64,000 nt of DNA from Nitrospirota bacterium (GTDB lineage: Bacteria > Nitrospirota > Thermodesulfovibrionia > UBA6902), in NCBI GenBank assembly GCA_016213935.1, contig JACQZG010000009.1, forward strand, positions 647 to 64,646, in the 5' to 3' direction. The position numbers and the translations under genes are program-made. Shown here piece by piece: positions 30,742-57,911 of this stretch (the first letter of the stretch is position 1; the number at the start of each line of letters is the position of its first letter). The notes under the pieces were generated by a model, which had not been told where the DNA came from, searched no databases, and saw only the letters and a program-made list of their open reading frames with translations.

Positions 30742-30744
30742 GGG

Positions 30745-34043: not shown

Positions 34044-34044
34044 T

Positions 34045-37308: not shown

Positions 37309-37373
37309 CAAGGGGAACCCGTTGGGGTTCCCCTTGCATCTGAGTGGTTAAGCAACTCTTAACCACTCAGATG
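37309..37373 (+). other. Two consecutive perfect stem-loops between OmcS-like paralogs (terminator/attenuator or RNA processing element)
   Basis: CAAGGGGAACC-cgt-GGTTCCCCTTG, immediately followed by CATCTGAGTGGTTAAG-caact-CTTAACCACTCAGATG (16 bp stem). No clear U-tract follows. Confidence 0.5.
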
Positions 37374-37397
37374 CAAGATACGAAAGCAAGGCATATT

Positions 37398-38647: not shown

Positions 38648-39628
38648 ATGCGTTCAATAAGACTTCAAACAAGAAAGATAATGACATTGATTAAACATGT
38701 TTTAAATCCATCTGTCATTATTGTTTTATTTGTTTTATTTGGAACAGTCAGACCTGTTTCATTAAATGCCCAGGGGCCTCTTGTCAGGTATTATATGGCA
38801 TTAGAGTATGACGAAAATGATGAGAGACTTGTCAGGCCCTCTTTTGCGCAGTATGAAAATGTAATGAATGAAATTTATGTAATTGATGCCAGGCAAAGGG
38901 TGCTGATATATACTTCTGACCTTTTTCCGGTTCTTTCACTCGGCAAGAGCCGTAAGATACTGAATCCCGAAGGTTTGACAGTTGATTCTAACGGCAATCT
39001 TTATGTTGTTCAGACAGCCACGCCTGAAGATTTGAGAAACAGGGTTTCCGTTTACAATGCCTGCCTCAAATGGGAGCGTGATATCTTTTTTGAGGGCTTT
39101 GAAGGCGCTGATAAATTTGTGCCGTATCGCCTTGCAAAAGATTCAAAGGGCAATCTTTTTGTTGCAGGAATACGCTTCCCGGGAGTTCTGATATTTGATG
39201 CTGATTATAACTTGGTAGAAATAATATCTCCGCAGGAAAATGATAGGAAGGCGTTGATTATGAATGTCCATATTGATGACACGGGCCGGATATATCTTGT
39301 AAGCGAGGAAGAAGGGCATATTTATGTTTATGATGAAAATCGAAAGTTCATCTATCAGTTTGGGGAAAAAGGCGGCAGTTCCGGCAAGTTGAGCAGGCCG
39401 CGTGCCGTGGCAGTTGATAATAACAGGGGATGGCTTTATGTCGTTGATTATATGAGACACACGGTCAATACATATGACCGCAACGGCATGATGTTATTCG
39501 AGTTTGGCGGAATGGGATGGGGAGAAGGCTGGTTCAGGTTCCCTACAGACATTAGCGTTAATAAGGAAGGCGATGTGATGGTTACAGACCTTTTTAACCA
39601 GAGAGTACAGATCTTTAAGCCTTACTGA
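38648..39628 (+). CDS. Secreted NHL-repeat beta-propeller protein
   Basis: Signal peptide and repeated NHL-like units (SNGNLYVVQ..., RPRAVAVDNNRGWLYVVDYMRHTVNTYDRNG, VMVTDLFNQRVQIFKP). Confidence 0.8.
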   Translation: MRSIRLQTRKIMTLIKHVLNPSVIIVLFVLFGTVRPVSLNAQGPLVRYYMALEYDENDERLVRPSFAQYENVMNEIYVIDARQRVLIYTSDLFPVLSLGKSRKILNPEGLTVDSNGNLYVVQTATPEDLRNRVSVYNACLKWERDIFFEGFEGADKFVPYRLAKDSKGNLFVAGIRFPGVLIFDADYNLVEIISPQENDRKALIMNVHIDDTGRIYLVSEEEGHIYVYDENRKFIYQFGEKGGSSGKLSRPRAVAVDNNRGWLYVVDYMRHTVNTYDRNGMMLFEFGGMGWGEGWFRFPTDISVNKEGDVMVTDLFNQRVQIFKPY

Positions 39629-39642
39629 CGGTTGAAAATTTC

Positions 39643-41244
39643 ATGTCAATATTATTTTGCAATTTGAGGCGGTTTTTCAGAAATAAAAATTTGGTGTTGT
39701 GTATTATTATTTTTATATACGGCTGCTCCATCGTTTTAAATGATAATAGTGTAACTGAAGACCAGAAGCCTCCCGATTACAACAGCCAGATAACGCTTTA
39801 TTTTAATGGCCATGAGAAGACATCTCTTGATTTGGAATTTCTTTTAACCGGGGTTGACATGGTTTTTGTTGATGGAACATCAATAGGGATTCTTAAAGGG
39901 CCTGTAACATTGAGGTCATCTGAAGTTAAGGGCAGGCAGGTGCGCCTTGGCGAGATATATGTCCCTGAAGGCGAATGCAAAGAAGTCCGTTTGCATATCA
40001 CTAAAGCATCGATAATAACCCCTGACGGCACTGCATCACTTTCAATTTCTTCAGATACGGTATCCATGCCTTTTAATCTTGTCATTAAAAGGAGGCAAAA
40101 TTCCACGCTATTTTTAAATTGGAACCCTGACGGGTCTGTGACAGATAACTATCTTTTTACCCCTTTGTTCTATTTGGGAAAAGAGGCCCCAGACCTTATT
40201 GGTCAGCTTCTGTATGTTACCAATGAAGATTCTAATAATGTGTCGGTCATAAACCGGTATTACGGCAAGGTCGTCGGAACCGTGCTCGTAGGCAAAAGGC
40301 CGAGGGGTATTGCCGCTGGATTGAAGGAAGACCGGTTAAGGGTATATGTTGCAAATTCAGGTTCAAACAGCGTATCGGTAATTGATCCCAATACAAATAC
40401 AGTAGAACATGAAATCCCTTTAAGATTCGGTAGGGAACCGGTCGCGATTGCTGTTGCGAAAGGGCCTTTTGGGAGAGAACTCGTTTTCGTGGCTAATTAT
40501 GCTTCCGGCTCGGTATCTGTGATAGACCCTTTATCTTTTCAGGAGCTTGAGAGAGTCGGGGTCGGAAACGGGCCTGTGGCTGTAGCCGCGGATCCTCCCG
40601 TCGAATTTTATTCTGGTTCCGCATCTCTCAGCATTGAAGAGGTTAACTTAATAAAAGATTATAGAGGCAAATTTGTTAATGTCTATGTTGCCAATAAAGA
40701 GTCAAACAGCGTATCAGTAATTCGAATGGACATGCTTAATAACAGGGTGGAAGATGTTCAGAATGTCGCTGTTGAATGGAGCCCTGTCGCATTGTCCGTT
40801 GACTTCAAAAGAGGCAAAGTCTATGTCGCAAATTACGGCTCTGACAGGCTGTCTGTCATAGATATCGTATCGCTAATACGCGGGGATGGTTCTGCAGAAA
40901 TAAGCTCAATTGAAAATACCGGCCGTTACACAGTGGGAGTCGCAACCAATCCATTCATTGACAGGCTCTACCTGCTTAAATCCGTCTCGTCCGAAGTTTT
41001 ATTTTTAAACCCTTATTCTGATGCAGGAAATGATATATTTTCTGTATCAGGCTCTGTAATGGGTATTGCCGCAACAGGTCTTTCGCCGAGATCATTACAA
41101 TTTGACCTTCAATCCAGAAATCTCTTTGTGGTTAACAGCGGCTCCGACAGCGTTTCAATCATTGACGTCACTACCCGTAATGAAAAAAAGAGAATTTCCG
41201 TGGGGCGTAATCCTTACGGCGTAACAATGTTCTCGGTGAAATGA
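39643..41244 (+). CDS. YVTN-family beta-propeller repeat lipoprotein
   Basis: Lipobox (IFIYGC). Repeated ~40 aa units of the YVTN type (LYVTNEDSNNVSVINRYYGKV, VYVANSGSNSVSVIDPNTN, VFVANYASGSVSVIDPLSF, VYVANKESNSVSVI, LFVVNSGSDSVSIIDVTT). Confidence 0.75.
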   Translation: MSILFCNLRRFFRNKNLVLCIIIFIYGCSIVLNDNSVTEDQKPPDYNSQITLYFNGHEKTSLDLEFLLTGVDMVFVDGTSIGILKGPVTLRSSEVKGRQVRLGEIYVPEGECKEVRLHITKASIITPDGTASLSISSDTVSMPFNLVIKRRQNSTLFLNWNPDGSVTDNYLFTPLFYLGKEAPDLIGQLLYVTNEDSNNVSVINRYYGKVVGTVLVGKRPRGIAAGLKEDRLRVYVANSGSNSVSVIDPNTNTVEHEIPLRFGREPVAIAVAKGPFGRELVFVANYASGSVSVIDPLSFQELERVGVGNGPVAVAADPPVEFYSGSASLSIEEVNLIKDYRGKFVNVYVANKESNSVSVIRMDMLNNRVEDVQNVAVEWSPVALSVDFKRGKVYVANYGSDRLSVIDIVSLIRGDGSAEISSIENTGRYTVGVATNPFIDRLYLLKSVSSEVLFLNPYSDAGNDIFSVSGSVMGIAATGLSPRSLQFDLQSRNLFVVNSGSDSVSIIDVTTRNEKKRISVGRNPYGVTMFSVK

Positions 41245-41288: not shown

Positions 41289-43529
41289 GTGAGTAATAGA
41301 CGTTTAATAAACGCTCTTCTTTTTTTGATTTTATTTATCGGCGGTTCCTCGGCAGTCTTCGCTGACCTGAACGGAAACGCAAGCATTGACTATACCTCGT
41401 TTCAGGAGGATAGGGGCGATGCCAGTATTACCCAAAACGATACTCAGAAGCGTCTAAATTTCTATTTCACTAAACCGATAACCTCCCTTCTTTCTTACCA
41501 GCTAACTTTGAGGGCTGAGATTTCCGATTCTGATTCCAGTGATTCACAGGGCGCTGATTATACCTCTCTTAAGGAAGTCTATGAACCCGGAATAGATTTT
41601 TCGCTTAAAAATGTTATGTACGAATTCGATTCGGGGTTTCATCACAGAGATGAGCTTTATTCTAATTCAGGACAGGCTTATGATAACAAAAGAATCACTG
41701 ATTTTTTCTACAGCCGGTTTGCTGTCAGCCCTCTTAATCTCCCCACTTTTTCCGCTGAACTTAGCAGGATTAAGGAAAGCGATAACATCATGCTCGACAG
41801 GCAAAACAGTATTTATTTTTTGAGGTCATCTTATGAACTGCCTTCTCCCGAGCTTGACTTCAGGGCAAATCTCAATTATTCACATGCAGAAGAAGAGAAC
41901 CCCGGGAAAATATTGTATAAAAACGTCAGCGATGCTTACTCCGGTGATTATCAGTTATCTGATTCACGCATTTTTTTGTCTGGGAAAATAATACTAAATG
42001 GAAGTTACAGGGGCAATTTCAGCAGTGCCGACAGCACGAGTTATTCCTCAGATACCGGATATGTCCTCTTTGAGCGCACCAAACTCGGCGGCCTCCACGC
42101 AAAAGGAACGGCGCTGAATCCTGACGTTGACAGTTTGCCTTCTGAAACAGCTCTTGCTGATGATAATTATATTCTTTCGACATCAATTAATCTCAGCATA
42201 TCAGGTTCTGACGAATATCATAATATAGGGATTTGGGTGCCTTCTGACGATTCTGTCGAGAAACTGTACATTTACGTTAACAAAGATGTAACAGGCGATT
42301 TTTCTTTAAAAAGCATCTCGAACTGGAAAGTCTATAAGAGCGATTTTAACCTGGCAGGCACATGGCTTCCGGTAACGATCAGCAGTGTTTCGGTTTCTCT
42401 ATTTGATCTTGCAAACACCATTTATCGTTACGAAATCGAATTTTCAGCTCCGCATAATGCGAGATATTTCAAAGCGGTTAACATGGATGTCTCCGATATT
42501 TCCAATGTTGCTGTCACAGAGATAGAGGCTTACGGGTCAGAACTCATTCCTGATTCCGGAATATTGACGAGCTCTTCTAACGCACTCGGCCAGAGGCTGG
42601 ATTTTTTATCGGTCTTTCAGCCATTAAGCAAATTCAGATTTAGTTTTAATTATTCGATTGATAAGTCTGACCAGAATCCGTCATCTGTTTTTAGCTCGAT
42701 CACATCTCTTTTTACAAGCATTTTTTCCAAATCAAGGAGCGAAGAAGATCAATCTGATTCCAGCAGCACAATCAATAAAGGCCTCGCACTTAATGCAAAC
42801 TGGTTAACTCATAAATTTCTCACGACCAATTTTCGTTTTCAGCGGAATGAATCATATGACAATGCCTTTAAGACTGATAGGGCGGCTACTACTTATGAAC
42901 TATCTTTTAATTCATCGCCGATTGAAACGCTTAACGCAAGTTTTAGTATGGTAAGAGGGGATAGTTATCAATTTGAAGTAAAAGAGTCGACATATGATTC
43001 GGCAATATTAAGCCTTGGCACCCGATTATACAGGGATTTGAATATGGTGACGGATATAGGATATTCACGGTCTGACTCCGTAAGCGGGGGAGATTCAACT
43101 TCAAGGTATATTTCAGGTAGCATTGATTCGGTTTTTACAGATAAATTGGAGGGTAGCTTGAGCTACAATATAAACTGGAAATCGTCTGGGGAATCAGAAG
43201 TTCAGTCAAAAAGCAGTTCGGCAAAGATAACCTATCGTCCAGGCAGATTTGTTAATTTATCCTGTGATTTTAATTATTCTTCTAATGACGCAGGTTCCGC
43301 CATGTCGGAAATAATAACTGCGGAATGGCGGCCTGTCCCCGTTTTGCAGTTGAATGCCAATTACCAGCACTCAAGTACAAGCTCAGCGAGTATTACAAAG
43401 GATGTTTTTTCGGGCAACGGCACATGGCATATTAAAAAGTTTTTACATGCGCAGCTTTCATTTTTATATGAGAAAGAAGGCGAAAGCACGGAACAGAATG
43501 TCAGTACCGGCATGAGATTATTGTTTTAA
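41289..43529 (+). CDS. Large Ser/Asp-rich secreted protein, predicted outer-membrane beta-barrel (porin-like)
   Basis: Signal peptide (ALLFLILFIGGSSAVFA). 746 aa with alternating polar/aromatic beta-strand-like segments and a C-terminal ...TGMRLLF (terminal Phe, typical of OM beta-barrels). Confidence 0.5.
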   Translation: MSNRRLINALLFLILFIGGSSAVFADLNGNASIDYTSFQEDRGDASITQNDTQKRLNFYFTKPITSLLSYQLTLRAEISDSDSSDSQGADYTSLKEVYEPGIDFSLKNVMYEFDSGFHHRDELYSNSGQAYDNKRITDFFYSRFAVSPLNLPTFSAELSRIKESDNIMLDRQNSIYFLRSSYELPSPELDFRANLNYSHAEEENPGKILYKNVSDAYSGDYQLSDSRIFLSGKIILNGSYRGNFSSADSTSYSSDTGYVLFERTKLGGLHAKGTALNPDVDSLPSETALADDNYILSTSINLSISGSDEYHNIGIWVPSDDSVEKLYIYVNKDVTGDFSLKSISNWKVYKSDFNLAGTWLPVTISSVSVSLFDLANTIYRYEIEFSAPHNARYFKAVNMDVSDISNVAVTEIEAYGSELIPDSGILTSSSNALGQRLDFLSVFQPLSKFRFSFNYSIDKSDQNPSSVFSSITSLFTSIFSKSRSEEDQSDSSSTINKGLALNANWLTHKFLTTNFRFQRNESYDNAFKTDRAATTYELSFNSSPIETLNASFSMVRGDSYQFEVKESTYDSAILSLGTRLYRDLNMVTDIGYSRSDSVSGGDSTSRYISGSIDSVFTDKLEGSLSYNINWKSSGESEVQSKSSSAKITYRPGRFVNLSCDFNYSSNDAGSAMSEIITAEWRPVPVLQLNANYQHSSTSSASITKDVFSGNGTWHIKKFLHAQLSFLYEKEGESTEQNVSTGMRLLF

Positions 43530-43534
43530 TAATA

Positions 43535-44164
43535 ATGCGCAATAATGAAGCTTTAAATAAAAATATCAATGGGTTATATTATTCTATGTTTAATTCGGCA
43601 ATCAGGCATGGTTCATTGATTTTTCGTTTTTCGTTTTTATTATTTTTTGTAACATACGGGTGCAGCGTTATGAGCGCGTATGTAAGGCCCGGATTTGATA
43701 AAGCTTCAGTGAAAAAAATAGCGGTTCTTCCTTTTGAAAATTATACCGAAGATAAATTTGCAGGCCAGAAGATGAGGGCTAAGGTTATGATCGAGCTTCT
43801 TAATTCCGGATTCGAGGTTGTGGAAGAGGGGGAGGTTACAAGGATATTGAAGGAGTTAAAAGTGTATCAGGTCGCATCAATAACCGTTTCAGACATTCAG
43901 GAACTTGGCAAGAGGCTCGGCATTGACGCGGTGGTTAAAGGTTCAACAGGGGAGATGGAAGATAAGAAAGGCGTAGCCTTAACATATCCTGAAGTATCCA
44001 TTAATTTAAGCATACTCGATGCAAAATCCGGAGATATTGTCTGGTCCGTGTCGCATAGTGCCGGCGGTCCGAGTTTCTGGACAAGGCATTTTGGAACAGA
44101 GGGGGATACCCTGGATAAGGCCGCTTATAAAGTTGTAAAAGAGTCTATTAATACATTAAAATAA
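43535..44164 (+). CDS. Small lipoprotein, paralog family member 1 (hypothetical)
   Basis: Lipobox (FVTYGC). KIAVLPFENYT ... GIDAVVKGS; similar to the next two genes. An alternative start is the ATG at 43586. Confidence 0.5.
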   Translation: MRNNEALNKNINGLYYSMFNSAIRHGSLIFRFSFLLFFVTYGCSVMSAYVRPGFDKASVKKIAVLPFENYTEDKFAGQKMRAKVMIELLNSGFEVVEEGEVTRILKELKVYQVASITVSDIQELGKRLGIDAVVKGSTGEMEDKKGVALTYPEVSINLSILDAKSGDIVWSVSHSAGGPSFWTRHFGTEGDTLDKAAYKVVKESINTLK

Positions 44165-44182
44165 ACACATTTATATAATATA

Positions 44183-44779
44183 ATGAACTTAATATTGAAG
44201 TTGAAATATAATACAATTTTTATTTATCTAATAATTGGCTGTTCGTTTTTTTTAAACGGATGCTTCGCCTCTCAACCGACATATCATATTAAGGAGGATG
44301 TTGATTTCAGTTATATAAAAAGGGTAGCTATATTGCCGTTGCAGAATTTTACCAGCGACAAAAACGCTTCTGATGCGGTTAGGCAGGTGCTTATCACAGA
44401 ATTTTTGTCTTCAGGGTTGGCCGATGTTGTTGTCCCGGGAGACGTTCTGGCTGCCCTTAATAATATAGGCGTTAGCTCTATTTCCTCTCCAAGTATTGAA
44501 GAAATAAGATCAATCGGAAAATTTCTGAAAGTACAAGCTGTCATTACGGGTTCTGTAGACAAATTAGCTGAGATCAGGAGCAGTAATGTTACTTCGGCCG
44601 AGGTTACTTTGACTTTAATGATGGTGGACACAGGAGCAGGCGATATTCTCTGGTCCGTAACGGCCACAAGCGGCGGGGCAGGCTTTATGTCAAGGCATTT
44701 TGGCGCTGATACCCCGACATTGAGTGAAACGATTTCAGATGTTGTAAAAAGGTCTATTCAGACATTGACAGGGAATTAA
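44183..44779 (+). CDS. Small lipoprotein, paralog family member 2 (hypothetical)
   Basis: Lipobox (LNGC). RVAILPLQNFTSD ... VQAVITGSV ... ILWSVT ... HFGADTPTL parallels member 1. Confidence 0.5.
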   Translation: MNLILKLKYNTIFIYLIIGCSFFLNGCFASQPTYHIKEDVDFSYIKRVAILPLQNFTSDKNASDAVRQVLITEFLSSGLADVVVPGDVLAALNNIGVSSISSPSIEEIRSIGKFLKVQAVITGSVDKLAEIRSSNVTSAEVTLTLMMVDTGAGDILWSVTATSGGAGFMSRHFGADTPTLSETISDVVKRSIQTLTGN

Positions 44780-44819: not shown

Positions 44820-45896
44820 ATGATGCCTAAATCAGACAGACTGACTTCTTTTTTTTCTTTAGTTAAATTTTCTTTACTGTTGCATAGTTTTTTGTTTTTC
44901 TTTTTGTTGTGCGACGGTATTGTCTTTGCCCAAGCAGTCACTGATATTAAGGAAGCCGATCAGAAAATAATCATATTTCCTTTTGATAATTATAGCGATA
45001 AGGTAGAAGCCGCTGACATTGTCATGCCTGTTCTCGTGGATAGTTTTATAAATAGAGGGTATAAAGTCATTGATGAAAAATTGCTTTATGACTTTTTATG
45101 TAAAGAGAAAGTAAGGGAAACAGGGTATATCTCAAGGGATCTTGCGAGAAAATTAAGAGATAAATTCGGGGTTGATTTTATTCTGGTTGGAGCGATTATC
45201 AGATTTGCTAATATTGACGTTCCTGATTTGGGTTTGACGGCAAGGCTTGTTGATGCTTCAAACGGCAACATCTTATGGGCTGATTATTCCTCAGCTGCTG
45301 GAGATGACTTTACAGCCGTATTAGGATTGGGGAATGTAAGGGAGATTGAAATGCTCGTTTCCATGGTGATCAATAATCTTTTGGCGTCATTCAGCTTAGA
45401 ACCTTTTGGCAAGCATGCCGAATCAGCTTACAAGATAGCGGTAATGCCTTTTCAGAATGATTCTGAAAATAAGGATGCCGGAATGATAGCCTCACAGTTT
45501 TTTATAGTTTCTTTGTTTAAAAGCAAAAGCTTTATCCCTGTTGAATACGGTGAAATTAAAACAAATATTTTTGATCTAAAGTTAAGGACAAAAGGTGAGC
45601 TGGATTATAGAAGTGTCAGCGAGTTAATGGAAAGGCTGAATGTTGATGGTTTTGTTATAGGCACAGTTGAACTATATTCCGAAGGGCAGAGGCTGCTTTC
45701 TCCCCCTGCGGCCGCAGTAACCGCAAGACTTCTGAATGCGCGTAACAGCAGGATGCTATGGTATAACAGGTACCAAATGACCGGTGATGATGATGTTATA
45801 ATTTATGATTGGCGCAGACTCAGGAGCGTTGATAAGGTTGCAAACAGGATAATTTCAAAACTTGTTAATGGGATGGGAGCTATTCAATGGCAGTAG
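44820..45896 (+). CDS. Secreted protein with two tandem copies of the same lipoprotein-family domain
   Basis: KIIIFPFDNYSD...ILWADYS and KIAVMPFQNDSEN...MLWYNRY are two repeats of the module seen in the two preceding genes. Confidence 0.5.
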   Translation: MMPKSDRLTSFFSLVKFSLLLHSFLFFFLLCDGIVFAQAVTDIKEADQKIIIFPFDNYSDKVEAADIVMPVLVDSFINRGYKVIDEKLLYDFLCKEKVRETGYISRDLARKLRDKFGVDFILVGAIIRFANIDVPDLGLTARLVDASNGNILWADYSSAAGDDFTAVLGLGNVREIEMLVSMVINNLLASFSLEPFGKHAESAYKIAVMPFQNDSENKDAGMIASQFFIVSLFKSKSFIPVEYGEIKTNIFDLKLRTKGELDYRSVSELMERLNVDGFVIGTVELYSEGQRLLSPPAAAVTARLLNARNSRMLWYNRYQMTGDDDVIIYDWRRLRSVDKVANRIISKLVNGMGAIQWQ

Positions 45897-47521
45897 AGCG
45901 CGGGATAAAATTTATTATTAATAGCCGATATCTGCAATATATTTTTGCTGGTATCTTATTGATTTTTATAACATATGGCTGCGCTTCAGTAAGACAGGCT
46001 CAGAGCGTATTGGCAATTGTTGACGGTGAATCCATAACAATTGATGACGTTAATTACGCGTTGGCAATTGAGCATAGAAGGGAGAATCTTTCAGCTACAG
46101 AAAAATTGGATATAAAAGGCTTCATTGATTCCATTATCGGCGACAAACTTATTATACAGGAGGCCCGCAGAATTGGTTTGGACCAGTACCTTGAGGTTAA
46201 AGACAAGCTGAAGGCATATATTCTCAGGGAATCTGTGGTGAAACTTCATGAGGATGAGATTGTTAAAAAAGTGAATGTTAGTGATGAGGAGATTCTTAAT
46301 TATTACAAAGACAATTACAAACGAATTACATATGATATTGTCGAATTAAACACAATGGAAGATGCGCTGAGCATATTAAACAGGCTTAACGAGGGCGAAG
46401 ATTTTAAGGAGATAGCTCTTACACTGCCTAATTATGAAGCAAAGGATAAAGAGAGGGTTTCAACCTTTGGTTCTTTTGATAAACTTTTTCAGGAAAAGAT
46501 TTCCGATCTGGGCACGGGTGAATTCAGCGACGTTATTGAGTTAAATAATAGTTTTTACATTATCAAGATACTTGGCAGGGAGGATGCTCCGCCTGAAAAG
46601 TTTTCAGAAGCAGCGAGCCATATTACCAAGATTATAAGAAACAAGAAGGAGGATGACAGGGGGAATGAATATCTCTCTGAACTGCGGGCTGCCTCTAACA
46701 TTGTAATTGATAATGAGATTCTCTCTTCCATTAAATTGCTGAAAGGAGAAGATGAGCGGGATAAGTGGGTTAATGACACCAGTCCTCTTGTTGTTTTGGA
46801 CGGAGAGATTTTCACTGTCAAGGATTTTATATTTGTTCTTCCTCCCGTTGTTAAAATTTCTAACGAAGTTTTGATAAAAAACTGGATTGACAGAAAGATT
46901 GTTGACAGAGAGGCTTTGTCAAGAAATTACAATCTTGATCCTGAACTAAGCCGTTACAGGGATCAGGTTTTTAAAAATGTTTACATTAAGGAATATGTTT
47001 TGCCAAATATAAATGTTTCCGAGGATCTCCTGAGGAATTATTATAACGAGCATTTAGATAATTATATGGAACCTCAACGTTACAGGATGCAGGTGATTAC
47101 TGCAGAGACAAAGGAGTCTGCTGAAGCGATTTACGACAGCCTTTTAAAAGGTGCTGATTTTGCATGGCTTGCGAAAATGAGGTCAACCGATGTTAAAACT
47201 GCCGAAAAAGGGGGGAATCTGGGCTGGCAGGCTATTTCGTTATTGCCTAAGCCGTTAATAGAGGTTATTGATTCCATTGAAGCTGAGGGAATAAGCCCGG
47301 TACTGTCAGTAGACTCAGTATATGCCATCTACAGGGTCCAGGAAAAGGCCGCTCCACTGGTTAAGGATTTTAATTCAGTAAGACAGGATGTTTACAGGTC
47401 ATATTTTGCAGAGCAGTTTAAAAAATCATATAATGAATATATAGAAAAATTAAAGTCAGACGCCGAGATAATTATCAATGAGAATGCAATCAAGTCATTT
47501 GCTGAAATGTTTAAACCGTAG
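45887..47521 (+). CDS. SurA/PpiC-type peptidyl-prolyl cis-trans isomerase lipoprotein (periplasmic chaperone-like)
   Basis: Lipobox (ITYGC), a SurA-N-like helical region and a C-terminal parvulin domain (LLKGADFAWLAKMRSTD...GGNLGW...). Confidence 0.65.
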   Translation: MAVERGIKFIINSRYLQYIFAGILLIFITYGCASVRQAQSVLAIVDGESITIDDVNYALAIEHRRENLSATEKLDIKGFIDSIIGDKLIIQEARRIGLDQYLEVKDKLKAYILRESVVKLHEDEIVKKVNVSDEEILNYYKDNYKRITYDIVELNTMEDALSILNRLNEGEDFKEIALTLPNYEAKDKERVSTFGSFDKLFQEKISDLGTGEFSDVIELNNSFYIIKILGREDAPPEKFSEAASHITKIIRNKKEDDRGNEYLSELRAASNIVIDNEILSSIKLLKGEDERDKWVNDTSPLVVLDGEIFTVKDFIFVLPPVVKISNEVLIKNWIDRKIVDREALSRNYNLDPELSRYRDQVFKNVYIKEYVLPNINVSEDLLRNYYNEHLDNYMEPQRYRMQVITAETKESAEAIYDSLLKGADFAWLAKMRSTDVKTAEKGGNLGWQAISLLPKPLIEVIDSIEAEGISPVLSVDSVYAIYRVQEKAAPLVKDFNSVRQDVYRSYFAEQFKKSYNEYIEKLKSDAEIIINENAIKSFAEMFKP

Positions 47522-47537: not shown

Positions 47538-49490
47538 ATGTATATTTCAAAAATATCATTGTTATTTTTTTGCCTGATAATCTTTACTGTATTATCTTGC
47601 GCTCCTGCAACTCAGAAGTCTGCAAAAGGCCGTTTTAAGCAGAAAGAGTGTCTTGATTGCCATGAAGAGATACAGCCTGACTTGAAACGCCGAATTGTGC
47701 ATATTCCTTTACAAGAGCACAATTGCGAAGGATGCCATCTTCGTCACGGAAGGCTGGCTTTTAAATCATTTATAGAACGTGAAGAAAGAAAACTTTGCTT
47801 TATATGCCATACTGTCATGGAATCGGATATTCTGAAAAGAAAGCATGTTCATACGGTAATTCAAGAGAATAAATGCCTGCCATGCCATGAACCTCATGCT
47901 TCTGAGGCCCAGGCTCTTCAGAAGAATGCCGGGAACAGTCAATGTTTTGGATGCCATAATGATGCTACGTTTAAACGCGCGACTCGGCATAAACCCGTTG
48001 AAGACGGGTGCCTTATTTGTCATGATCCGCATGGGTCTGACTATAAGTCTAATCTTATTAAAGATGAGGTAGCTCTTTGCGAATCATGCCACAAGTTTAA
48101 TGAAAAGAATTTTATCGCAGCTCACAATAATTATCCAGTCGGCAAGGGCACTTGTATGGGCTGCCACACTCCGCACAGTTCGTCAAACAGCAAACTTCTC
48201 AGAGAGTATGTGCATGCGCCGGTCAGTAATATTGAGTGTTCTTCATGCCATCTGCCTTCTGAAGGCCCTAACCCCCTTTCGGTTTCATCAGTAGAAGGAA
48301 ATCTCTGCTATTCATGCCACACAAAAGAGAAAAAAGATTTCAATAAAAATTACAGACACCTCGTGGCCGAAAAGGAAGAGTGTTTGAAATGCCATAGCCC
48401 TCATGCATCTGATTATCCCAAAATCACCATTAAAAACAATGTGGATTTATGTTTAATGTGTCACGACAAGAAACCAAATGTAAACGTTAATAATTTACAT
48501 AGCCCGATAAGAAATAAAGGTTGTACCGCTTGTCATGACTCTCATGCTTCTGATAACCGGCTTTATCTTACTGCTCCTGAAAATGAGATATGTTTTACCT
48601 GCCATGAGGCTCTTAAGGATATGCTGAAAGAGGAGAATATACATGAACCCTTCATGAAGATTGAATGCCTGAAATGCCATGATACCCATGGCAGCAACTA
48701 TGCCGGCATGCTGAAGGTAACAGCCGAAGACCTTTGTTTCACCTGCCATAAAGATGAACAGAAGAATTACTTTAGAACATATATTCATACTCCTGTTAGC
48801 AATAAGAAATGTTCTTCTTGCCACCAATCTCATGTTTCTAAATTTAAGAAGCTGCTCACCGATGACCCTGAAAATATATGTATGAAATGCCATCAGGGCT
48901 TGGTTCAGGAGGAAGAAGGCATTTTTATCCACCAGCCGTTTAAGGAGAAAAAATGCAGTGTTTGCCATGATCCGCATGCAAGTGATAATATCGCTTCAAC
49001 TGTAAAACCTATGACTGAGCTTTGCTTCACATGCCATAAAAATATGGGGGAAGCATTAAACAAGTCTCTTAATAAGCATCTTCCCGTTGAGGAAGGGAAA
49101 TGCAATTCCTGTCATAATTCCCACTTGTCAAAAATAAAGAATCAACTCCTTAATCTTCCGAATGCTCTTTGCCTTACTTGCCATGAAAGGATAATTACGA
49201 CTACATCAAGAAGCGGACATATTGCAACTGAAGGCGTGGATTGCCTGAATTGTCATATATCTCATTATTCTGATTCTAATACGCTTTTAAAAGGTAAAGA
49301 CCCTGACATATGCCGTAAGTGCCACTCTGCAGATACTGAAAATCTTTTAAGGGTTCATAAGTCTCCGCTTGATGATATTTCCCGTTGTTCAAGCTGTCAC
49401 GAACCGCATGTTACTGAAAAGCCAGGGCTTCTGAAGAAAGTTGTTCATGACCCATTCAACCAAGGGCATTGTGAGGCATGTCATGAATAG
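47538..49490 (+). CDS. 26-heme c-type cytochrome lipoprotein built from ~13 doubled-CXXCH units
   Basis: Lipobox (FTVLSC) and 26 CXXCH motifs counted. The repeating unit is CxxCH-x(~20, with internal His)-CxxCHxxH(A/G/S)S, as in the paired-CXXCH family. Confidence 0.8.
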   Translation: MYISKISLLFFCLIIFTVLSCAPATQKSAKGRFKQKECLDCHEEIQPDLKRRIVHIPLQEHNCEGCHLRHGRLAFKSFIEREERKLCFICHTVMESDILKRKHVHTVIQENKCLPCHEPHASEAQALQKNAGNSQCFGCHNDATFKRATRHKPVEDGCLICHDPHGSDYKSNLIKDEVALCESCHKFNEKNFIAAHNNYPVGKGTCMGCHTPHSSSNSKLLREYVHAPVSNIECSSCHLPSEGPNPLSVSSVEGNLCYSCHTKEKKDFNKNYRHLVAEKEECLKCHSPHASDYPKITIKNNVDLCLMCHDKKPNVNVNNLHSPIRNKGCTACHDSHASDNRLYLTAPENEICFTCHEALKDMLKEENIHEPFMKIECLKCHDTHGSNYAGMLKVTAEDLCFTCHKDEQKNYFRTYIHTPVSNKKCSSCHQSHVSKFKKLLTDDPENICMKCHQGLVQEEEGIFIHQPFKEKKCSVCHDPHASDNIASTVKPMTELCFTCHKNMGEALNKSLNKHLPVEEGKCNSCHNSHLSKIKNQLLNLPNALCLTCHERIITTTSRSGHIATEGVDCLNCHISHYSDSNTLLKGKDPDICRKCHSADTENLLRVHKSPLDDISRCSSCHEPHVTEKPGLLKKVVHDPFNQGHCEACHE

Positions 49491-50778
49491 ATTGTACACA
49501 TTGAGTATCTTTAATTTAATCAGAGGTAAAAGCTTAAGTGTATTAATCTTTCAAGCTGTCTTTTTCACTATTATATTTCAATTTGATTTCGCTCATGCAA
49601 AAGCTGAGCTGACAGCGGCCGAACCAACGATTTGTTATAAATGCCATAAAGAGCTAAAAGATAATTTATCTGCTAAATATGTCCATTTCCTTTTTAAGCA
49701 GGGGAAGTGCAGTACATGTCATAATCCGCATGTTAGCAAGGATAAAGGCTTGTTAAGGGAGGATATTAATCCGCTGTGCCTTGGTTGCCATGAAAACATT
49801 AAGAATATAATCGCAACTGGACGTCAGCACAGCGCAATCAGAGACGGGGCATGCACTGATTGTCATTTTGCACATAGCAGTAATAATAACAACCTTATGG
49901 TTAAACCGGAAAAGGATCTTTGCTGGAAGTGCCATGAAGAACTAAAGCCTCAGCTTGAGAAAAAATATGCCTGTTCTCCATTCAAGAACGGGGATTGTTC
50001 AGCCTGTCACAATGCCCACGGCTCATCAGAAGACAATCTTTTGCACAGTAATCCTAAAGCGACATGTAAAAAATGTCACAATTCAGTCGGCTGCAAGTCA
50101 GGCAGTGTCTCTATATCAGCTTTAACGAAGGATATGAACTGCATATCCTGTCACTCAGGACATAGTTCCGATTCAAAAGGCATGTTAGGCCCGTATGGCC
50201 ATAAAGTATTTATTAACAAAGAATGCGTCAAATGCCATAAGCCCATAAAAGAGGGTGAGAAAATAACAACTCTTGCTGTTGGAGACGTCTTATGCCTTAA
50301 CTGCCATCGTGAAAAAACAGAGGTGATTGAAGATGATGTTCATGGAAGGGGCGATGCGTATTCTTGTACTTTGTGTCATGACCATCATGCTTCCGAAAAG
50401 AGCAATCTTACCAAGAGTGAATCAAGGCTATGTGTTAAGTGTCATGCTGATACCGAAAAAAGAACTGTCTTTATGGAGAAGGCCCTCAAATCAAAACGTG
50501 AATGCGAGCCTATAAAGAACAGAGAATGTTTTGAGTGCCATGTCCCTAAACATTCGAGGCGGATTTTGAATTTTAAACAGGATGTTTTTGTACTCTGCAA
50601 TGAATGTCATGAAACCGAGCACAAAATAACGCATCCTCTCGGCGCCGATGTAATCGATGTTCGTAACGGTCAGCCAATTACGTGCGTCACATGCCATAGC
50701 ATGCATTCTGCAAAAGCAAGCTATATGCTTACTCATGACGGAAAAAGAACTTTGTGCATTCAGTGCCATAAATATTAG
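49483..50778 (+). CDS. 16-heme c-type cytochrome (secreted)
   Basis: The start ATG overlaps the upstream stop by 8 nt (ATGAATAG). Signal peptide and 16 CXXCH motifs counted, again in paired units (CYKCH...CSTCHNPHVSKD). Confidence 0.8.
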   Translation: MNRLYTLSIFNLIRGKSLSVLIFQAVFFTIIFQFDFAHAKAELTAAEPTICYKCHKELKDNLSAKYVHFLFKQGKCSTCHNPHVSKDKGLLREDINPLCLGCHENIKNIIATGRQHSAIRDGACTDCHFAHSSNNNNLMVKPEKDLCWKCHEELKPQLEKKYACSPFKNGDCSACHNAHGSSEDNLLHSNPKATCKKCHNSVGCKSGSVSISALTKDMNCISCHSGHSSDSKGMLGPYGHKVFINKECVKCHKPIKEGEKITTLAVGDVLCLNCHREKTEVIEDDVHGRGDAYSCTLCHDHHASEKSNLTKSESRLCVKCHADTEKRTVFMEKALKSKRECEPIKNRECFECHVPKHSRRILNFKQDVFVLCNECHETEHKITHPLGADVIDVRNGQPITCVTCHSMHSAKASYMLTHDGKRTLCIQCHKY

Positions 50779-50906: not shown

Positions 50907-51926
50907 ATGAAGTTACCGCTCTATAACATAATTTTTTTTTGCGGTTTGATGTTTGTTCTTTATTTGTCCGAGTGCAGCGCTGATATGTCGGGTAAATTCT
51001 GCAGCGATTGTCATACAATGCATAACAGCCAAGCTTCTGAGGTTATGACATTTGATGACAGTTTGACGCCTTACAAGGCATTGCTACGTGGCTCTTGCGA
51101 CGGCTGTCACTCATCTTCCTCTAATTCCGTGTGGATTGACTCGGTTGCCGGGGCCCCTATCGTATATAATACTGTTGAACCTTCATATGCGAACAATGGA
51201 CTTGCCGGCGGCAATTTTTATTACACAAGTACAACCGATGATGATAAAGGCCATAATATTTTTTTGTTAAATCCTGATGATATATTAGGCAATACTCCGC
51301 CTGGAGGGAATAGTCTCGATCAGCAACTCAATTGTTCAGGAACTTACGGTTGTCACGGGCATAACGGCAGGCAGGTCGGAGATGTCGCAATTGAGGATCA
51401 ATTGAGTGCGATTATGGGCGGGCATCACGGGATTAATTCCCCTATGGACGGCAGTGTCACTGAGGTATCAAAAAGTTATCGTTATCTGCTTGGCATAAAG
51501 GGTATGGAGGATTCTGATTGGGAACATGACAATACTGCCACAAGCCATAATGATTCAAGCTCAACCGATTCTATAAGTTTTTTTTGCGCTTAATGCCATG
51601 GTAATTTCCATACATGGACAGGGGGCGAGTCTGAAGTGGGAAGCGCTTCTCCCTGGCTTAGGCATCCGACCGATATGGTTTTGCCGGCTTCCGGGGAATA
51701 CAATTCATATACAAACTATGACCTTTTGGCGCCAGTCGCTCGGGCAGATCCCGATTCTGTTGCCGACACTACGCGTGCTTATCCTGGAACCGACATTGTT
51801 ATGTGTCTTTCATGTCATCGGGCGCACGCCTCTCCTTATTACAAAATGCTCAGGTGGGATTATAAAAGCACAGTTTTATCAACTGCATTATCCGGATGCA
51901 ATGTTTGTCATACGTCAAAAAATTAA
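50907..51926 (+). pseudogene. OmcS-like hexaheme cytochrome paralog 3, interrupted by an in-frame TAA (51591-51593) inside a CXXCH motif
   Basis: Signal peptide, [17 protein letters not shown] and C-x5-CH (CSGTYGCH). At the fourth site the paralogs read CxxCH but this copy reads FFCA-TAA-CHGNFH. The same frame then continues (WLRHPTDMVLP ... CLSCHRAHASPYYKMLRWDY ... CNVCH) to 51926. Confidence 0.6.
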
Positions 51927-54165: not shown

Positions 54166-55068
54166 ATGGATTTATTTTGGCTTAGCATAATGAATATTAT
54201 ATTTCTTCCCTTAATAGGGTTGATAATGGGAACAGCATTTGCCAACGAAATTCCGAAAGAAACTAATATTCACTTCGCAGGTAAATATTGTGAAGAGTGT
54301 CATTCTCAAACGCCGGAAAAAGGCAAAGATAAATACTTGAAATATGGAAACGATTATGGTCGAACTTGCCGGTGCCATGAATATACCCCAGGGACATACA
54401 TTCACCCGGTTTTTATAAAACTTTCTGATGAGAAAAAGTCCAAGATACCCGATAATTTTCCTTTGGACAACGGAGAAATAACATGTCTGACATGTCATGA
54501 TATATATCTTCAGTGTCAGGACAGAGTTGTTTTAAAACTTTTCAACAGGCTTTTTCTAAGGGGAGGTCCTTACTTGCAGAGGACAGACATATGCTTTAAT
54601 TGTCATAATCGAAGCGAATATGCCAAACTTAATCCGCACAATCAGCTTGATGAGTATGGGAATATAATAGGCGAAAAATGCCTCTATTGTCATACGGAAA
54701 AGCCCGATGAGAAGCTGGATGCATATAAGGAAACATCTTCCGGCCATCAAGTCAAGCTTATTGGAAACTTTGATGCATTGTGTCTCAGATGTCATCCTGA
54801 AAAAGGAAGATTTCATCCGATAAACGCTGATCATCTTAGGAGACCTTCTGCGGTAACTTTGTCCAATATTAAAGAGGCGGAAAAGAAATACAATGTTATT
54901 CTCCCATTAAATGACAAGGGCGAAATCACATGCGCAACTTGTCATAATCCTCATGAAAAGGGCGTGTTGCCTCGCAAAAAGGCCTCTGCCTCAGGTGCAA
55001 GTGAGAAATACAGGCTTCGATTATCCGGCATGACTGGTGAGATATGCAGGGCATGCCATAAAAAATAA
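54166..55068 (+). CDS. Heptaheme (possibly octaheme) c-type cytochrome, secreted
   Basis: Signal peptide. Motifs CEECH, CLTCH, CFNCH, CLYCH, CLRCH, CATCH, CRACH, plus an atypical CRCH (C-x-CH) at 54367-54378. Confidence 0.7.
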   Translation: MDLFWLSIMNIIFLPLIGLIMGTAFANEIPKETNIHFAGKYCEECHSQTPEKGKDKYLKYGNDYGRTCRCHEYTPGTYIHPVFIKLSDEKKSKIPDNFPLDNGEITCLTCHDIYLQCQDRVVLKLFNRLFLRGGPYLQRTDICFNCHNRSEYAKLNPHNQLDEYGNIIGEKCLYCHTEKPDEKLDAYKETSSGHQVKLIGNFDALCLRCHPEKGRFHPINADHLRRPSAVTLSNIKEAEKKYNVILPLNDKGEITCATCHNPHEKGVLPRKKASASGASEKYRLRLSGMTGEICRACHKK

Positions 55069-55084
55069 TATAGGGGGTGGAAAT

Positions 55085-56161
55085 TTGAAGCATATTAATC
55101 ATGTGAGAATCACGTTATATTTCAGTCTCCTCTTCTTTGTTGCGGTGGCAGCATTTGCAACATCTGCTTATGCAGCAGACAAAGAAAACTGTTTAATGTG
55201 CCATAAGTATCGTTTTCTCGGCAGAATCGATGAACACGGTAAAAAAAGAAATTATAATGTTGATGAAAATATTTTCAACAATACGGTTCATCGAAATGTA
55301 CCGTGCAGGGATTGCCACACTCAAATCGCCAACCTCCCGCACGATCCGATAACGGAGGAAGTTAACTGCGGAAATGAATGTCATATTAAGCCGCCCTTCT
55401 CGACTGAAAATTTCTCGCATAAAAAAATAATCCAGATTTACAACAAAAGTGTTCACGGCATAAAAGCAGATGACCCCGAGGATTTGAAGGCGGCAAAGCC
55501 ATATTGTAAATACTGCCATTTAAACCCTATTTTTACGAAAGTGGAGGAAGAAAGGGTAGCAAGTTCAACACTACGGAGATGCTTGAACTGCCATGAAGAG
55601 AAAGGGGTTTCCCAGGCTTATAAGCATATAACGCACCGTCTCCGGCATAAAACATCTCGTTCAAGGCAGGAGATTGTCAAGCTATGTTCGTATAATTGTC
55701 ATGAGAATACCGCATTAATGGCAAGATTTAATGTTTCCCAAGAGAGCCTTGAGTCTGTCGAAACCTATAAGCGATCTATACATGGAAAGGCTGTTGCGTT
55801 AGGTTCTGAGGAGACAGCTGACTGTGTGAGCTGCCACGCGACCAGCAGTATACATGATGTTTACAAGAAGGATGAGATGATGTCAACAGTAAATGAAAGA
55901 AACCTCAAAAGGACGTGTGAGCAGTGCCACAGGGATGTTAGTGATGAGTTTATAAAAATAGATGTTCATTCCGGGATTACCCATGATGAAAAGCCGTTCC
56001 TGCATTTTCTCGAAGTTATGCTTGGTTTTGTTCTGTACGGAACAATATTCAGCTTATTGGGCCTTGCCGTTCTTGAGACGATTGGAAGAAAGAAGGATGG
56101 GATCAAGTGGCAGATTAGAGAGGGCACTACCTGGCGCGGAATATCAAAAAGAGGATTTTAG
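55085..56161 (+). CDS. Octaheme c-type cytochrome with C-terminal TM anchor (Cbc-type quinol oxidoreductase c subunit), module A
   Basis: TTG/GTG start after an AGGGGGTGG RBS and a signal peptide. Motifs CLMCH, CRDCH, CGNECH (CX3CH), CKYCH, CLNCH, CSYNCH (CX3CH), CVSCH, CEQCH. C-terminal hydrophobic helix (FLEVMLGFVLYGTIFSLLGLAVL). Confidence 0.7.
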   Translation: MKHINHVRITLYFSLLFFVAVAAFATSAYAADKENCLMCHKYRFLGRIDEHGKKRNYNVDENIFNNTVHRNVPCRDCHTQIANLPHDPITEEVNCGNECHIKPPFSTENFSHKKIIQIYNKSVHGIKADDPEDLKAAKPYCKYCHLNPIFTKVEEERVASSTLRRCLNCHEEKGVSQAYKHITHRLRHKTSRSRQEIVKLCSYNCHENTALMARFNVSQESLESVETYKRSIHGKAVALGSEETADCVSCHATSSIHDVYKKDEMMSTVNERNLKRTCEQCHRDVSDEFIKIDVHSGITHDEKPFLHFLEVMLGFVLYGTIFSLLGLAVLETIGRKKDGIKWQIREGTTWRGISKRGF

Positions 56162-56186: not shown

Positions 56187-57077
56187 ATGGCAACTTCGTC
56201 TGAAACATTAGTAACCACTGCCGGGAATGCACAGGCGGACAGCGATTATATGCATTATGTCGAGGGAGTCGGTCATGTCCCGAGGGATATTTACAAACAT
56301 GTGCTTTCAGACCCTCTCGGTGACTTGCCTCGGTATTCGATTCATATCGTCATCCAGCACTTTCTTATTTTTATAACATTCATCACTCTCGCGGCTACCG
56401 GCCTCCCTCTTCATTTCGGTGACCTGTTCTGGGCGCCGATAATTCTGGCTCCATTAGGCGGCCCTGATTCCGCACGAATTATACACAGGATTTCTGCAGG
56501 GATAATGATAGTGGCTGCTCTCTATCATTTCATCACTATCGCAATCGGGACTTACAGTAAGCTTAAAAAGCACAAATTTAACCTGTTACATAGTCAGATT
56601 CCGACATTGAAGGATTTAAATGACATTAAGCATGATATCAGGTATTTTCTTGGCAAGGAGCAGTACCGCCCCAAGATGGGCAAGTTCATGTATAAACAGA
56701 AGCTGCATTACCTGGCCATAATATGGGGTACATTTGTAATGATAGTTGCAGGGTCAACGCTTTTGTTTCCTGAGGCCATGGCTAAGTTTTGGCCAAATCC
56801 TGAATTTGCCCAGGATCTCGCAAGGCTTATGCACGCGGATGAGGCAATTATGGCTTCAGCTGTGGTTGTATTTTGGCATTGGTCCAATGTGCACTTGGTG
56901 CCCGGCAGATTTCCGCTTCAGTGGACTTTTTTGACAGGCAGAATCACTCGCGAACATCAGATAGAAGAGCATTTTCTTGAATATATCGATAAGCTAAAAG
57001 ATGACCCGAAAGAAAAGGAATATTTAATAAGCGTATTGAAAGAAAAAGGATACAAAACAGAAGGGGGTGAGGTTTAA
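56187..57077 (+). CDS. Membrane di-heme cytochrome b (FdnI/HydC-like, Ni/Fe-hydrogenase b-type cytochrome family), module A
   Basis: Four or five TM helices with conserved His residues (IHIVIQHFLIF, RIIHRISAGIMIVAALYHF, VVFWHWSNVH). Confidence 0.7.
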   Translation: MATSSETLVTTAGNAQADSDYMHYVEGVGHVPRDIYKHVLSDPLGDLPRYSIHIVIQHFLIFITFITLAATGLPLHFGDLFWAPIILAPLGGPDSARIIHRISAGIMIVAALYHFITIAIGTYSKLKKHKFNLLHSQIPTLKDLNDIKHDIRYFLGKEQYRPKMGKFMYKQKLHYLAIIWGTFVMIVAGSTLLFPEAMAKFWPNPEFAQDLARLMHADEAIMASAVVVFWHWSNVHLVPGRFPLQWTFLTGRITREHQIEEHFLEYIDKLKDDPKEKEYLISVLKEKGYKTEGGEV

Positions 57078-57911
57078 TTGTCCGGGAGACCTAAAAGGCT
57101 TAATCATCCAAAAAGTGTTTATGTTGTGGGTTTAGTTTTTAAAATTATAACCCTTACGGTTATCATTGCGGTTTTATATCATCTGACCTTGTCGCATCAT
57201 GGCCCAAACCTTCTGACTCCTTTAAAAACAAAGATCGAGGAAAAGCAGAAGTCGGAAATTATGGAAGAAGTACAACATCTTGAAGAACTCGAAGTCCACA
57301 GGCATTTTCATAATATAGCCCCATTTCCGGAGATGCCTGAAAACCTGAGGCCGGTCTGTTTTATATGCCATTCAGATTACCCTCACAGCAAGAGTAAAAA
57401 GGTCAGGGCGATGTTAAATATGCACACCCAATTTTTCACATGTGAGGCGTGCCATTTAGAAGAAGACCCCGGTCTTAAGGTTGTTTTCAACTGGTATAAT
57501 CCACAGGATGAAAATCCTAAAGGGCCTTTTTTCGGCACGGATTATGACTCTGAAACAGGCAATCTCATAACTGTCACGGATAAATTATCAAAGATATCAG
57601 TTTTTTATAAAAAAGGTGATAAATTAGAATCTACGATTCAGATGCAGGATGCCCCGATCGCGATCGATTACATGAAAATCAGGGATAAACTTACTCCTGA
57701 CCAGCGCGATAATGTCAAAAAGAAATTTCATGTAAGGATCAAACCCAAGGGTCATGAATGCAAAAAATGCCACGACAGAAACAGTATTCTTGATTTTAGG
57801 AAACTCAGCTTTTCAGACAACAGAAGGGTTGACCTTGAGCAATTGAATATCACAGGTATGATTACGAAGTATGAAATGTTTTACCTGCCTAACCTTTTTC
57901 AGGGTGAGTAA
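57078..57911 (+). CDS. TM-anchored triheme c-type cytochrome, module A
   Basis: N-terminal TM helix (VVGLVFKIITLTVIIAVLY), then CFICH, CEACH and CKKCH. It starts 1 nt after the upstream stop. Confidence 0.65.
   Translation: MSGRPKRLNHPKSVYVVGLVFKIITLTVIIAVLYHLTLSHHGPNLLTPLKTKIEEKQKSEIMEEVQHLEELEVHRHFHNIAPFPEMPENLRPVCFICHSDYPHSKSKKVRAMLNMHTQFFTCEACHLEEDPGLKVVFNWYNPQDENPKGPFFGTDYDSETGNLITVTDKLSKISVFYKKGDKLESTIQMQDAPIAIDYMKIRDKLTPDQRDNVKKKFHVRIKPKGHECKKCHDRNSILDFRKLSFSDNRRVDLEQLNITGMITKYEMFYLPNLFQGE

Follow-up and report, generated by a model that had tools for sequence, protein, structure and literature searches.

The 64,000-nucleotide stretch analysed here (the window) covers positions 647 to 64,646 of contig JACQZG010000009.1, part of an assembly from a Nitrospirota bacterium (GCA_016213935.1; Thermodesulfovibrionia, UBA6902). 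It encodes a 26-heme c-type cytochrome of the family of Geobacter OscI (GSU2495) and, directly downstream, a 16-heme cytochrome of the OscJ type. Laid end to end, the two proteins align in register with single-chain proteins from other bacteria that carry exactly 42 hemes, which suggests that the pair is a divided form of one long heme chain. The two genes are:

47538-49490, + strand: OscI-type 26-heme c-type cytochrome (26 CXXCH motifs; 13 matches to PF09699)
49483-50778, + strand: OscJ-type 16-heme cytochrome with its own Sec signal peptide (16 CXXCH motifs)

The frame of the 26-heme gene (47478/47538-49490) is free of stop codons and yields 650 residues from the Met codon at 47538, a start that makes the signal peptide as long as those of orthologues. 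Careful re-translation confirms the heme count reported in an earlier, sequence-only reading of this DNA. The protein contains exactly 26 CXXCH motifs, which begin 22-28 residues apart, and it has no CX3CH, CX4CH or CXXCK variants. By chance, 0.38 such motifs would be expected from the Cys/His-rich composition of the protein itself and 0.001 from an ordinary composition. All but two of the 54 Cys residues (52) lie within heme motifs, the exceptions being C12, which belongs to the signal peptide, and C21, the lipobox Cys. The signal peptide spans residues 1-20, and the N-terminus (MYISKISLLFFCLIIFTVLSC followed by AP) is a lipoprotein signal. Its end, FTVLS-C21-AP, conforms to the lipobox pattern [LVI][ASTVI..][GAS]C, with the Cys21 codon at 47598-47600, so the lipobox noted previously is indeed present. 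The mature apoprotein comprises 630 residues (71 kDa, or about 87 kDa with 26 hemes). This corresponds to 24 residues per heme, which leaves no room for a catalytic domain. Two antisense open reading frames nested in the gene (47766-48032, 88 residues; 48495-48977, 160 residues) are read as by-products of the cytochrome frame.

Hemes 1-8 and 10-25 are arranged as 12 pairs of the type CxxCH-x11-13-HxP..-CxxCHxxH. The first (A) motif of a pair is a CxxCH followed 11-13 residues on by an H-x-P-[VFL] element, and the second (B) motif is CxxCHxxH[AGS]S. Two hemes stand alone, those of motif 9 (CSSCHLPSEG) and motif 26 (CEACHE, then the stop codon); each is preceded by a B heme plus an additional HxP[VF] element, forming a local triheme unit, and both are kept in every sequence of a nine-orthologue alignment. 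The description of the protein as built entirely from 13 tandem doubled units is therefore right about the doubled-CXXCH module and wrong about the number, which is 12 doublets plus two conserved singles. The module itself is borne out by the Pfam profile PF09699 (Doubled CXXCH), which matches in 13 stretches with 416 bits (cut-off 20.6, E = 8e-128). The 41-residue model runs from a B motif to the next A motif (best stretch 369-408) and not from A to B, as the unit had originally been phased. TIGR01905 also matches in 13 stretches (400 bits, cut-off 25.2), and PF14522 (Cytochrome_C7) in three.

All 26 motifs are invariant among the nine orthologues (32-35% identity), as are 25 of the 29 His residues outside the motifs, and H514 fills the equivalent 26th distal-ligand position. 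Because every heme has a candidate distal His, the chain is probably bis-His throughout. Recent tandem duplication can be ruled out: there is no DNA-level tandem repeat within the gene, the 12 units share only about 30% identity with one another, and 11-14 of the 25 two-heme windows still match their own positional counterparts best in orthologues. The heme array thus appears to be old and position-specific.

The ATG of the 16-heme gene overlaps the last 8 nucleotides of the 26-heme gene (...CAT GAA TAG / ATG AAT AGA), and the two are probably translationally coupled. Related loci (numbered with L, and proteins with P) were fetched from genome and metagenome contigs by scans built on orthologue alignments; scans with a single protein gave none. 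A 16-heme gene comes next after the 26-heme gene in 30 of the 33 loci obtained; in the remaining three, the contig is truncated. A homology search with the 26-heme protein returns thousands of relatives, and the matches listed form two sharp classes, one of ~650-700 residues with 26 CXXCH motifs (12 of the form CxxCHxxH) and one of ~1050 residues with exactly 42. The closest relative among the matches listed is a partial protein from a metagenome-assembled genome (MAG) of a Nitrospirae bacterium (56% identity). About 90 listed relatives, from Zixibacteria, Latescibacterota, Krumholzibacteria, GN15, the FCB group and Gemmatimonadaceae, all have exactly 42 CXXCH motifs in ~1050 residues. Heme number is far more conserved than sequence in these proteins (P0001-P0083 and others), which share ~30% identity.

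In BLAST comparisons with each of the 42-heme proteins tested, the 26-heme protein has its best segment over N-terminal residues ~30-670 and the 16-heme protein over residues ~675-1060, and scores in register are clearly above those off register. An exhaustive phmmer search with the 16-heme protein gives the same end-to-end C-terminal matches. When concatenated OscI and OscJ are aligned with fused proteins using MAFFT, 42 of 42 heme motifs fall in register in ten cases out of ten. The break sits in the 10-20-residue linker after heme 26. Heme 26 is at the extreme C-terminus of OscI, the tail beyond it being only 1-5 residues in all split forms, and heme 27 lies just past the signal-peptide cleavage site of OscJ. 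The complete register and the colinearity of the best segments therefore indicate, at the level of sequence, that the OscI-OscJ pair is a split version of one 42-heme chain, or else that the 42-heme form is a fusion of the two. This relation is new here, and no paper on single-chain 42-heme proteins was found in the literature searched. The fused proteins (annotated as cytochrome c3 family, e.g., P0042, P0081 and P0011) differ from the pair in forming one ~1050-residue polypeptide, usually with a plain signal peptide, and are uncharacterised. Two of three 42-heme loci examined (L019-L021) lie beside genes for LpoB-like, barrel-sized, peptidyl-prolyl isomerase (PPIase), NHL and OmcS-sized cytochrome proteins; in the Zixibacteria locus L020, no barrel-sized or LpoB-like neighbour is listed.

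OscJ departs from the bis-His pattern in one clade. Two or three distal positions that hold His in 23 of 23 distant OscJ orthologues and in 12 fused proteins are Cys in the clade of the window protein (loci L022, L023 and L025-L029). The affected sites in the window protein are residues 164, 204/212 and 341. Both C-x-P-[IV] at 341 and N/R-C-K-x-G in place of the 'xHLG' His are found in eight of eight clade members (51-68% identity), and H164C is restricted to the window and L023. Each switch from His to Cys requires two nucleotide changes. These substitutions suggest that the 42-heme chain contains His/Cys-ligated hemes, which may be of very low potential or switchable.

The 26-heme family is already known, and the window gene is a further member from Nitrospirota; the sequence-only reading recognised neither this family nor the tie to the 16-heme gene. 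For GSU2495, a c-type cytochrome of Geobacter sulfurreducens, 26 heme-binding motifs are described, with Gbem_1124 as its conserved counterpart (PMC2996986), and the protein is given elsewhere as '~70 kDa/26 heme' (PMC12977616 and preprint). It is located in the omcS region along with GSU2494 (PMC3495685), and the names oscI for GSU2495, oscJ for GSU2494 and oscC for GSU2501 are in use (PMC13194489). The block GSU2500-2493 has been tied to OmcS nanowire maturation and secretion. PMC13194489, citing Shen et al. 2025, assigns OscH to folding, OscE/F/G to secretion and OscD to morphology. The product of the window gene agrees with the OscI/GSU2495 family in heme number, in length (650 residues, compared with ~650-700) and in mass (71 kDa for the mature apoprotein, compared with ~70 kDa). 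Its gene lies directly between those for a PPIase (OscH) and a second large cytochrome (OscJ), within a cluster that also encodes OmcS-like cytochromes, β-propellers and channel-like outer-membrane components:

36169-37299, + strand: OmcS-like multiheme cytochrome, 5 CXXCH motifs, start codon uncertain (phmmer match to OmcS, PDB 6ef8_A, E = 3.1e-9)
37344-38609, + strand: second OmcS-like cytochrome, 5 CXXCH motifs, start codon uncertain (6ef8_A, E = 0.003)
38648-39628, + strand: NHL-repeat β-propeller (Pfam NHL; homologues at 140-220 bits in related loci)
39643-41244, + strand: YVTN/lactonase-type β-propeller lipoprotein in an OscD-like position (Pfam; five TIGR02276 matches)
41289-43529, + strand: outer-membrane β-barrel of 746 residues, candidate OscE-type channel (structure prediction, Foldseek and synteny)
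43535-44164, + strand: LpoB/GNA1162/CsgG-like lipoprotein, OscF-like (Pfam; syntenic homologues in 14 loci)
44183-44779, + strand: paralogous LpoB-like lipoprotein (phmmer matches to the same locus reading frames as the 43535 gene)
44820-45896, + strand: protein with two GNA1162/FlgO/CsgG-like domains in an OscG-like position (Pfam; 290 bits to a neighbour in L001)
45887-47521, + strand: lipoprotein PpiC-type PPIase with a SurA-like N-terminus, OscH-like (PF13145, PF00639, SurA_N_3)

Every gene of this cluster has a significant phmmer homologue at the syntenic place in the related loci. In L001-L013, L018 and L021, as in the window, the PPIase gene precedes that for the 26-heme protein. In the short Nitrospirae contig L001 the PPIase gene is followed by the 26-heme gene, and the contig stops inside the latter. 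The Desulfuromonadales loci L002 and L004 encode, in order, NHL, a ~700-residue unknown, LpoB-like, ~500-residue, ~200-residue, PPIase and 26-heme proteins and a ~395-residue cytochrome. Loci from Desulfuromonadales MAGs (Desulfuromonas, Malonomonas and Trichloromonas) keep a gene order identical to that around the window's OscI gene, and their 26-heme proteins align full-length at 32-35% identity with 26 of 26 motifs matched. Neither the homology search with the window protein nor one seeded with the Desulfuromonas orthologue P0112 gave a named G. sulfurreducens entry among the matches listed, a look-up of cluster members yielded no Geobacter name, and there is no specific NCBIfam model for any osc component. 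According to PMC13194489, citing Shen et al. 2025, the Geobacter cluster shares with the window a β-propeller, channel-like proteins, a chaperone of the prolyl-isomerase type and OmcS-like cytochromes, in addition to the 26-motif, ~70-kDa cytochrome adjoined by a second large multiheme cytochrome. The window differs in its host, which belongs to Nitrospirota and not Desulfuromonadia, in the upstream position of the OmcS-like genes, in having three LpoB-like paralogues and in the two or three ligand switches of its OscJ.

The second OmcS-like protein (37344-38609) aligns with 6ef8_A at its N-terminal CHTMHNS and C-terminal CLSCHxAHAS motifs and scores 110-176 bits against ~365-residue cytochromes of the related loci. 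A third OmcS-like gene follows oscJ at 50907-51926 (+ strand), with an N-terminal FCSDCHTMHNS and a C-terminal CLSCHRAHASPYYKMLRWDY; it is broken by one in-frame TAA at 51591-51593, within a heme motif (tgc gct TAA tgc cat, or C-A-stop-C-H), and could be a pseudogene, a sequencing error or a case of read-through. One or two 12-heme cytochromes (~265-295 residues) are encoded upstream of the barrel gene in L002, L004, L006, L008-L011, L013, L018 and L025-L029, and no equivalent is seen in the window's cluster.

The lipid anchor, which the sequence-only reading had stressed, is not a constant feature of the family. Cys21-Ala22 is invariant in the nine aligned orthologues; across the wider sample a lipobox is found in 13 of 33 loci, in 34 of 59 split proteins and in 8 of 90 fused ones. 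It is present in the window protein and the Desulfuromonadales orthologues and lacking in the close relatives L025-L029 and in the L030-L040 clade. The fused 42-heme proteins usually have a signal-peptidase I site 2-4 residues ahead of heme 1. Given this variability, lipid tethering appears to be an accessory feature and cannot carry the mechanism. In P0170, a 1102-residue protein from a Bacteroidales MAG, a paired-CXXCH chain is fused to an OmpA (PF00691) peptidoglycan-binding domain, which may be another way to fix a heme chain in the periplasm.

Comparison with known structures points to MtrA, a rod of ten hemes that runs through the porin MtrB. MtrA is found by phmmer with E = 1.4e-14, along with one further 'cytochrome c' entry (28pb_A), and is the only named match to the 26-heme protein by both sequence and fold among solved structures. 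The TIGR03508 (DmsE/MtrA) profile scores 283 bits against a cut-off of 192.2, summed over five partial stretches, the best of which covers model positions 64-226 of 258. PF22113 (MtrC/MtrF domain II/IV) gives weak matches. The AlphaFold2 (AF2) model, built from a 28-sequence alignment, has a mean predicted local distance difference test score (pLDDT) of 81.7 and a predicted template modeling score (pTM) of 0.61, and shows a regular pattern of helices and short strands with a period of ~48 residues. Its sole significant Foldseek match in the PDB is MtrA of MtrCAB (6r2q_A, E = 5.7e-6, TMt 0.53 over 206 columns). The predicted model thus appears to share the MtrA fold locally, and the two proteins use the same doubled-CXXCH building block. 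They differ in that MtrA/DmsE has ten CXXCH motifs in ~300 residues, compared with 26 in 650 (42 with the partner), and in that the window protein has a lipoprotein signal, lacks an MtrC-type partner and passes the TIGR03508 cut-off only by summing. OmcS (PDB 6EF8) and GSU1996-type entries give no sequence match in the PDB at E ≤ 1e-3, and an OmcS-like identity was rejected on that basis. Nor does the proposed parallel with paired CXXCH motifs at the N-terminus of OmcS hold, since the OmcS-like proteins of the window carry PF09699 at their C-termini (residues 335-375 of 376 and 368-385 of 421). The dodecaheme 'nanowire' cytochromes of the GSU1996 type, built from c7 triheme domains, are likewise peptide-minimised linear multiheme polymers made by domain repetition; the window repeat is instead a two-heme doubled-CXXCH module, predicted to be bis-His throughout.

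As with MtrA, a large MtrB-like barrel is encoded near the cytochrome. The 746-residue protein has no Pfam match. Its AF2 model (pLDDT 85.6) is all-β with about 28 long strands, a β-sandwich inserted at residues 257-420 and a C-terminal ...MRLLF signal. The best PDB match is MtrB (6r2q_B, E = 2e-9, TM-scores of 0.38/0.42 in Foldseek), with TonB-dependent receptors and ushers close behind. Homologues occupy the syntenic place at E values of 1e-6 to 1e-10; a Nitrospirae bacterium MAG encodes the same protein (HY809_02700, 100% identity), and database homologues come from Nitrospirota or Thermodesulfovibrio. The β-sandwich bears a 'VTEIEAYG' element with conserved V409, T410, E411, E413, A414 and G416, and one distant homologue, P0243, carries the annotation PF00754 (F5/8 type C, discoidin). 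To judge from the predicted folds, the 26-heme protein and the barrel resemble the two halves of a porin-cytochrome pair.

We consider it probable that the 26-heme protein is an OscI-type periplasmic wire from an osc-type cluster of Nitrospirota, and that it is the N-terminal part (hemes 1-26) of an ancestral chain of 42 hemes that has been split in this lineage. A pure electron-transfer wire that forms one 42-heme unit with OscJ is the best-supported reading of its function and the most likely one. OscI and OscJ would most likely dock head to tail to give this wire. Quinol dehydrogenases of the inner membrane, putatively encoded downstream in the window, would donate electrons, which would hop through the 42-heme chain across the periplasm and be delivered to the products of upstream genes, namely the MtrB-like barrel and the OmcS-like cytochromes of a filament. 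Heme 1 would also be tethered to a membrane in this organism, through the lipid at the N-terminus. The anatomy of the genes, the family assignment from architecture and synteny, the relation between split and fused forms and the similarity in fold are shown here, whereas the formation of the complex, its geometry, the direction of electron flow and the partners are inferred. The 'heme wire' or trans-periplasmic conduit of the sequence-only reading survives as the most plausible function, but not insofar as it was made to rest on the lipid anchor. The candidate donors, and a 3-heme protein encoded beside the first module, are:

54166-55068, + strand: 7-heme cytochrome, candidate donor (weak, sub-threshold NapC/NirT match)
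55037-56161 and 56187-57077, + strand: 6-8-heme cytochrome with a hydrophobic C-terminal segment, and cytochrome b, candidate donor module (Pfam only)
57078-57911, + strand: 3-heme protein
61530-62582 and 62587-63420, + strand: multiheme cytochrome with a hydrophobic C-terminal segment, and cytochrome b, second candidate donor module (Pfam only)

If the quinol-oxidoreductase-like assignments hold, the window would encode a complete electron path spanning the envelope.

Several points weigh against this reading. The identity of the protein as OscI is assigned from architecture and synteny, GSU2495 being compared by its description. The AF2 model is heme-free, its likeness to MtrA covers ~200 residues, and the TM-scores to MtrA and MtrB are modest. 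The anchor is not conserved, which places membrane tethering outside the core mechanism, and the replacement of two or three distal His residues of OscJ by Cys could interrupt a simple downhill wire. Published work on the Geobacter orthologue covers heme count, periplasmic location (PMC13194489, PMC10599522) and expression changes only, and no role for OscI or OscJ is stated in the literature found. For the osc cluster as a whole, Shen et al. 2025, as cited by others, give OmcS folding, secretion and morphology as its functions.

A stricter version of the porin-cytochrome parallel is unlikely. In an MtrAB-like conduit one end of the chain would be threaded through the ~28-strand barrel and exposed, passing electrons directly to OmcS-like filaments or minerals, and the barrel would be a sheath and not a secretion channel. 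The top structural matches of the cytochrome and the barrel are indeed partners of one complex, TIGR03508 scores 283 bits against a cut-off of 192, and the two genes co-occur in split and fused loci. However, the barrel reaches a TM-score of only 0.38-0.42 with MtrB, little better than with pilus ushers and TonB-dependent receptors, and the five partial stretches that make up the TIGR03508 score include no full-length decaheme match. Moreover, three lipoprotein genes and the PPIase gene separate the barrel from the cytochrome, and Geobacter OscEFG are proposed, according to PMC13194489, to act in OmcS secretion.

We regard as more improbable still that the protein serves as an assembly or anchoring factor that nucleates, templates or fixes an OmcS-like filament at a secretion channel, or as a periplasmic electron store (capacitor) without defined partners. 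Such roles would suit the ties of the cluster to OmcS folding, secretion and morphology in the literature and the position of the gene immediately after a PPIase chaperone gene in the related loci examined; 42 low-spin hemes would also hold a large charge. At 24 residues per heme, all predicted to be bis-His, the chain nevertheless offers almost no scaffolding surface except at its two ends, and an exact 26 + 16 = 42 across phyla fits a length constraint better than bulk storage. The 42-heme genes also occur without a PPIase gene within 10 kb, and the L020 locus again lists neither barrel-sized nor LpoB-like neighbours. An outer-surface lipoprotein resembling MtrC or OmcB and forming an extracellular heme rod of roughly 20 nm, the second option of the sequence-only reading, is very improbable: the lipobox with Ala at +2 and the weak PF22113 matches would agree with it, but most family members, including L025-L029 of the same clade, have cleavable signal peptides without a lipobox, the fold relative is periplasmic MtrA and not MtrC, the Geobacter orthologue is listed as periplasmic (PMC13194489, PMC10599522), and the partner OscJ has a plain Sec signal.

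The periplasmic wire can be carried one step further, more tentatively. OscI and OscJ may form a conductor of fixed length that bridges the whole periplasm and acts as a ruler for its width, with the His/Cys-ligated hemes of OscJ as a redox gate or sensor; we think this possible rather than probable. MtrA, with 10 hemes, is about 8 nm long, and by extrapolation from it the conductor would measure roughly 30 nm.

Two further regions of the window stand apart from these questions. An 18-heme cytochrome of 749 residues (59040-61289, + strand) has a three-fold internal repeat ('GPCGACHLPHN...RLWAR', 'EGD(A/S)(T/S)NSFLR') and matches to MtrC/MtrF domain II/IV, and its gene is preceded by one for an NHL propeller (58085-59005). 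Immediately upstream of the cytochrome cluster are two tandem Wzy_C/PglL-like membrane proteins of the O-antigen-ligase family, one with a PglL_A protein-glycosylation-ligase motif, adjoined by a HAMP histidine kinase and a sigma-54 response regulator (32175-35805, - strand; 29230-32145, + strand). These genes may serve the cluster in glycosylation or regulation.

Taken alone, the window gene adds a Nitrospirota orthologue to a family whose Geobacter member has been in the catalogue from the first genome papers onward. The analysis contributes the relation of the pair to a split 42-heme chain, the resemblance of cytochrome and barrel to an MtrA/MtrB pair and the extension to a Nitrospirota MAG of a complete osc-type nanowire cluster, comprising OmcS-like subunits, chaperone, barrel, giant periplasmic cytochromes and putative quinol-dehydrogenase modules. 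The 26 + 16 = 42 colinearity gives OscI and OscJ a concrete, testable role and connects both with the 42-heme proteins of uncultured phyla, which number in the hundreds and are uncharacterised. Strict heme number and the clade-specific His-to-Cys switches offer handles on periplasmic electron transfer to cytochrome filaments. If the fixed-length conductor proves true, a 42-heme chain would join an inner-membrane quinol dehydrogenase to the barrel and an OmcS-type filament, replacing diffusible periplasmic carriers. The heme number of 42, in one chain or as 26 + 16, would then be conserved across at least six phyla as a molecular ruler, to which the two or three His/Cys-ligated hemes of OscJ in the Nitrospirota clade would add a redox gate or sensor.

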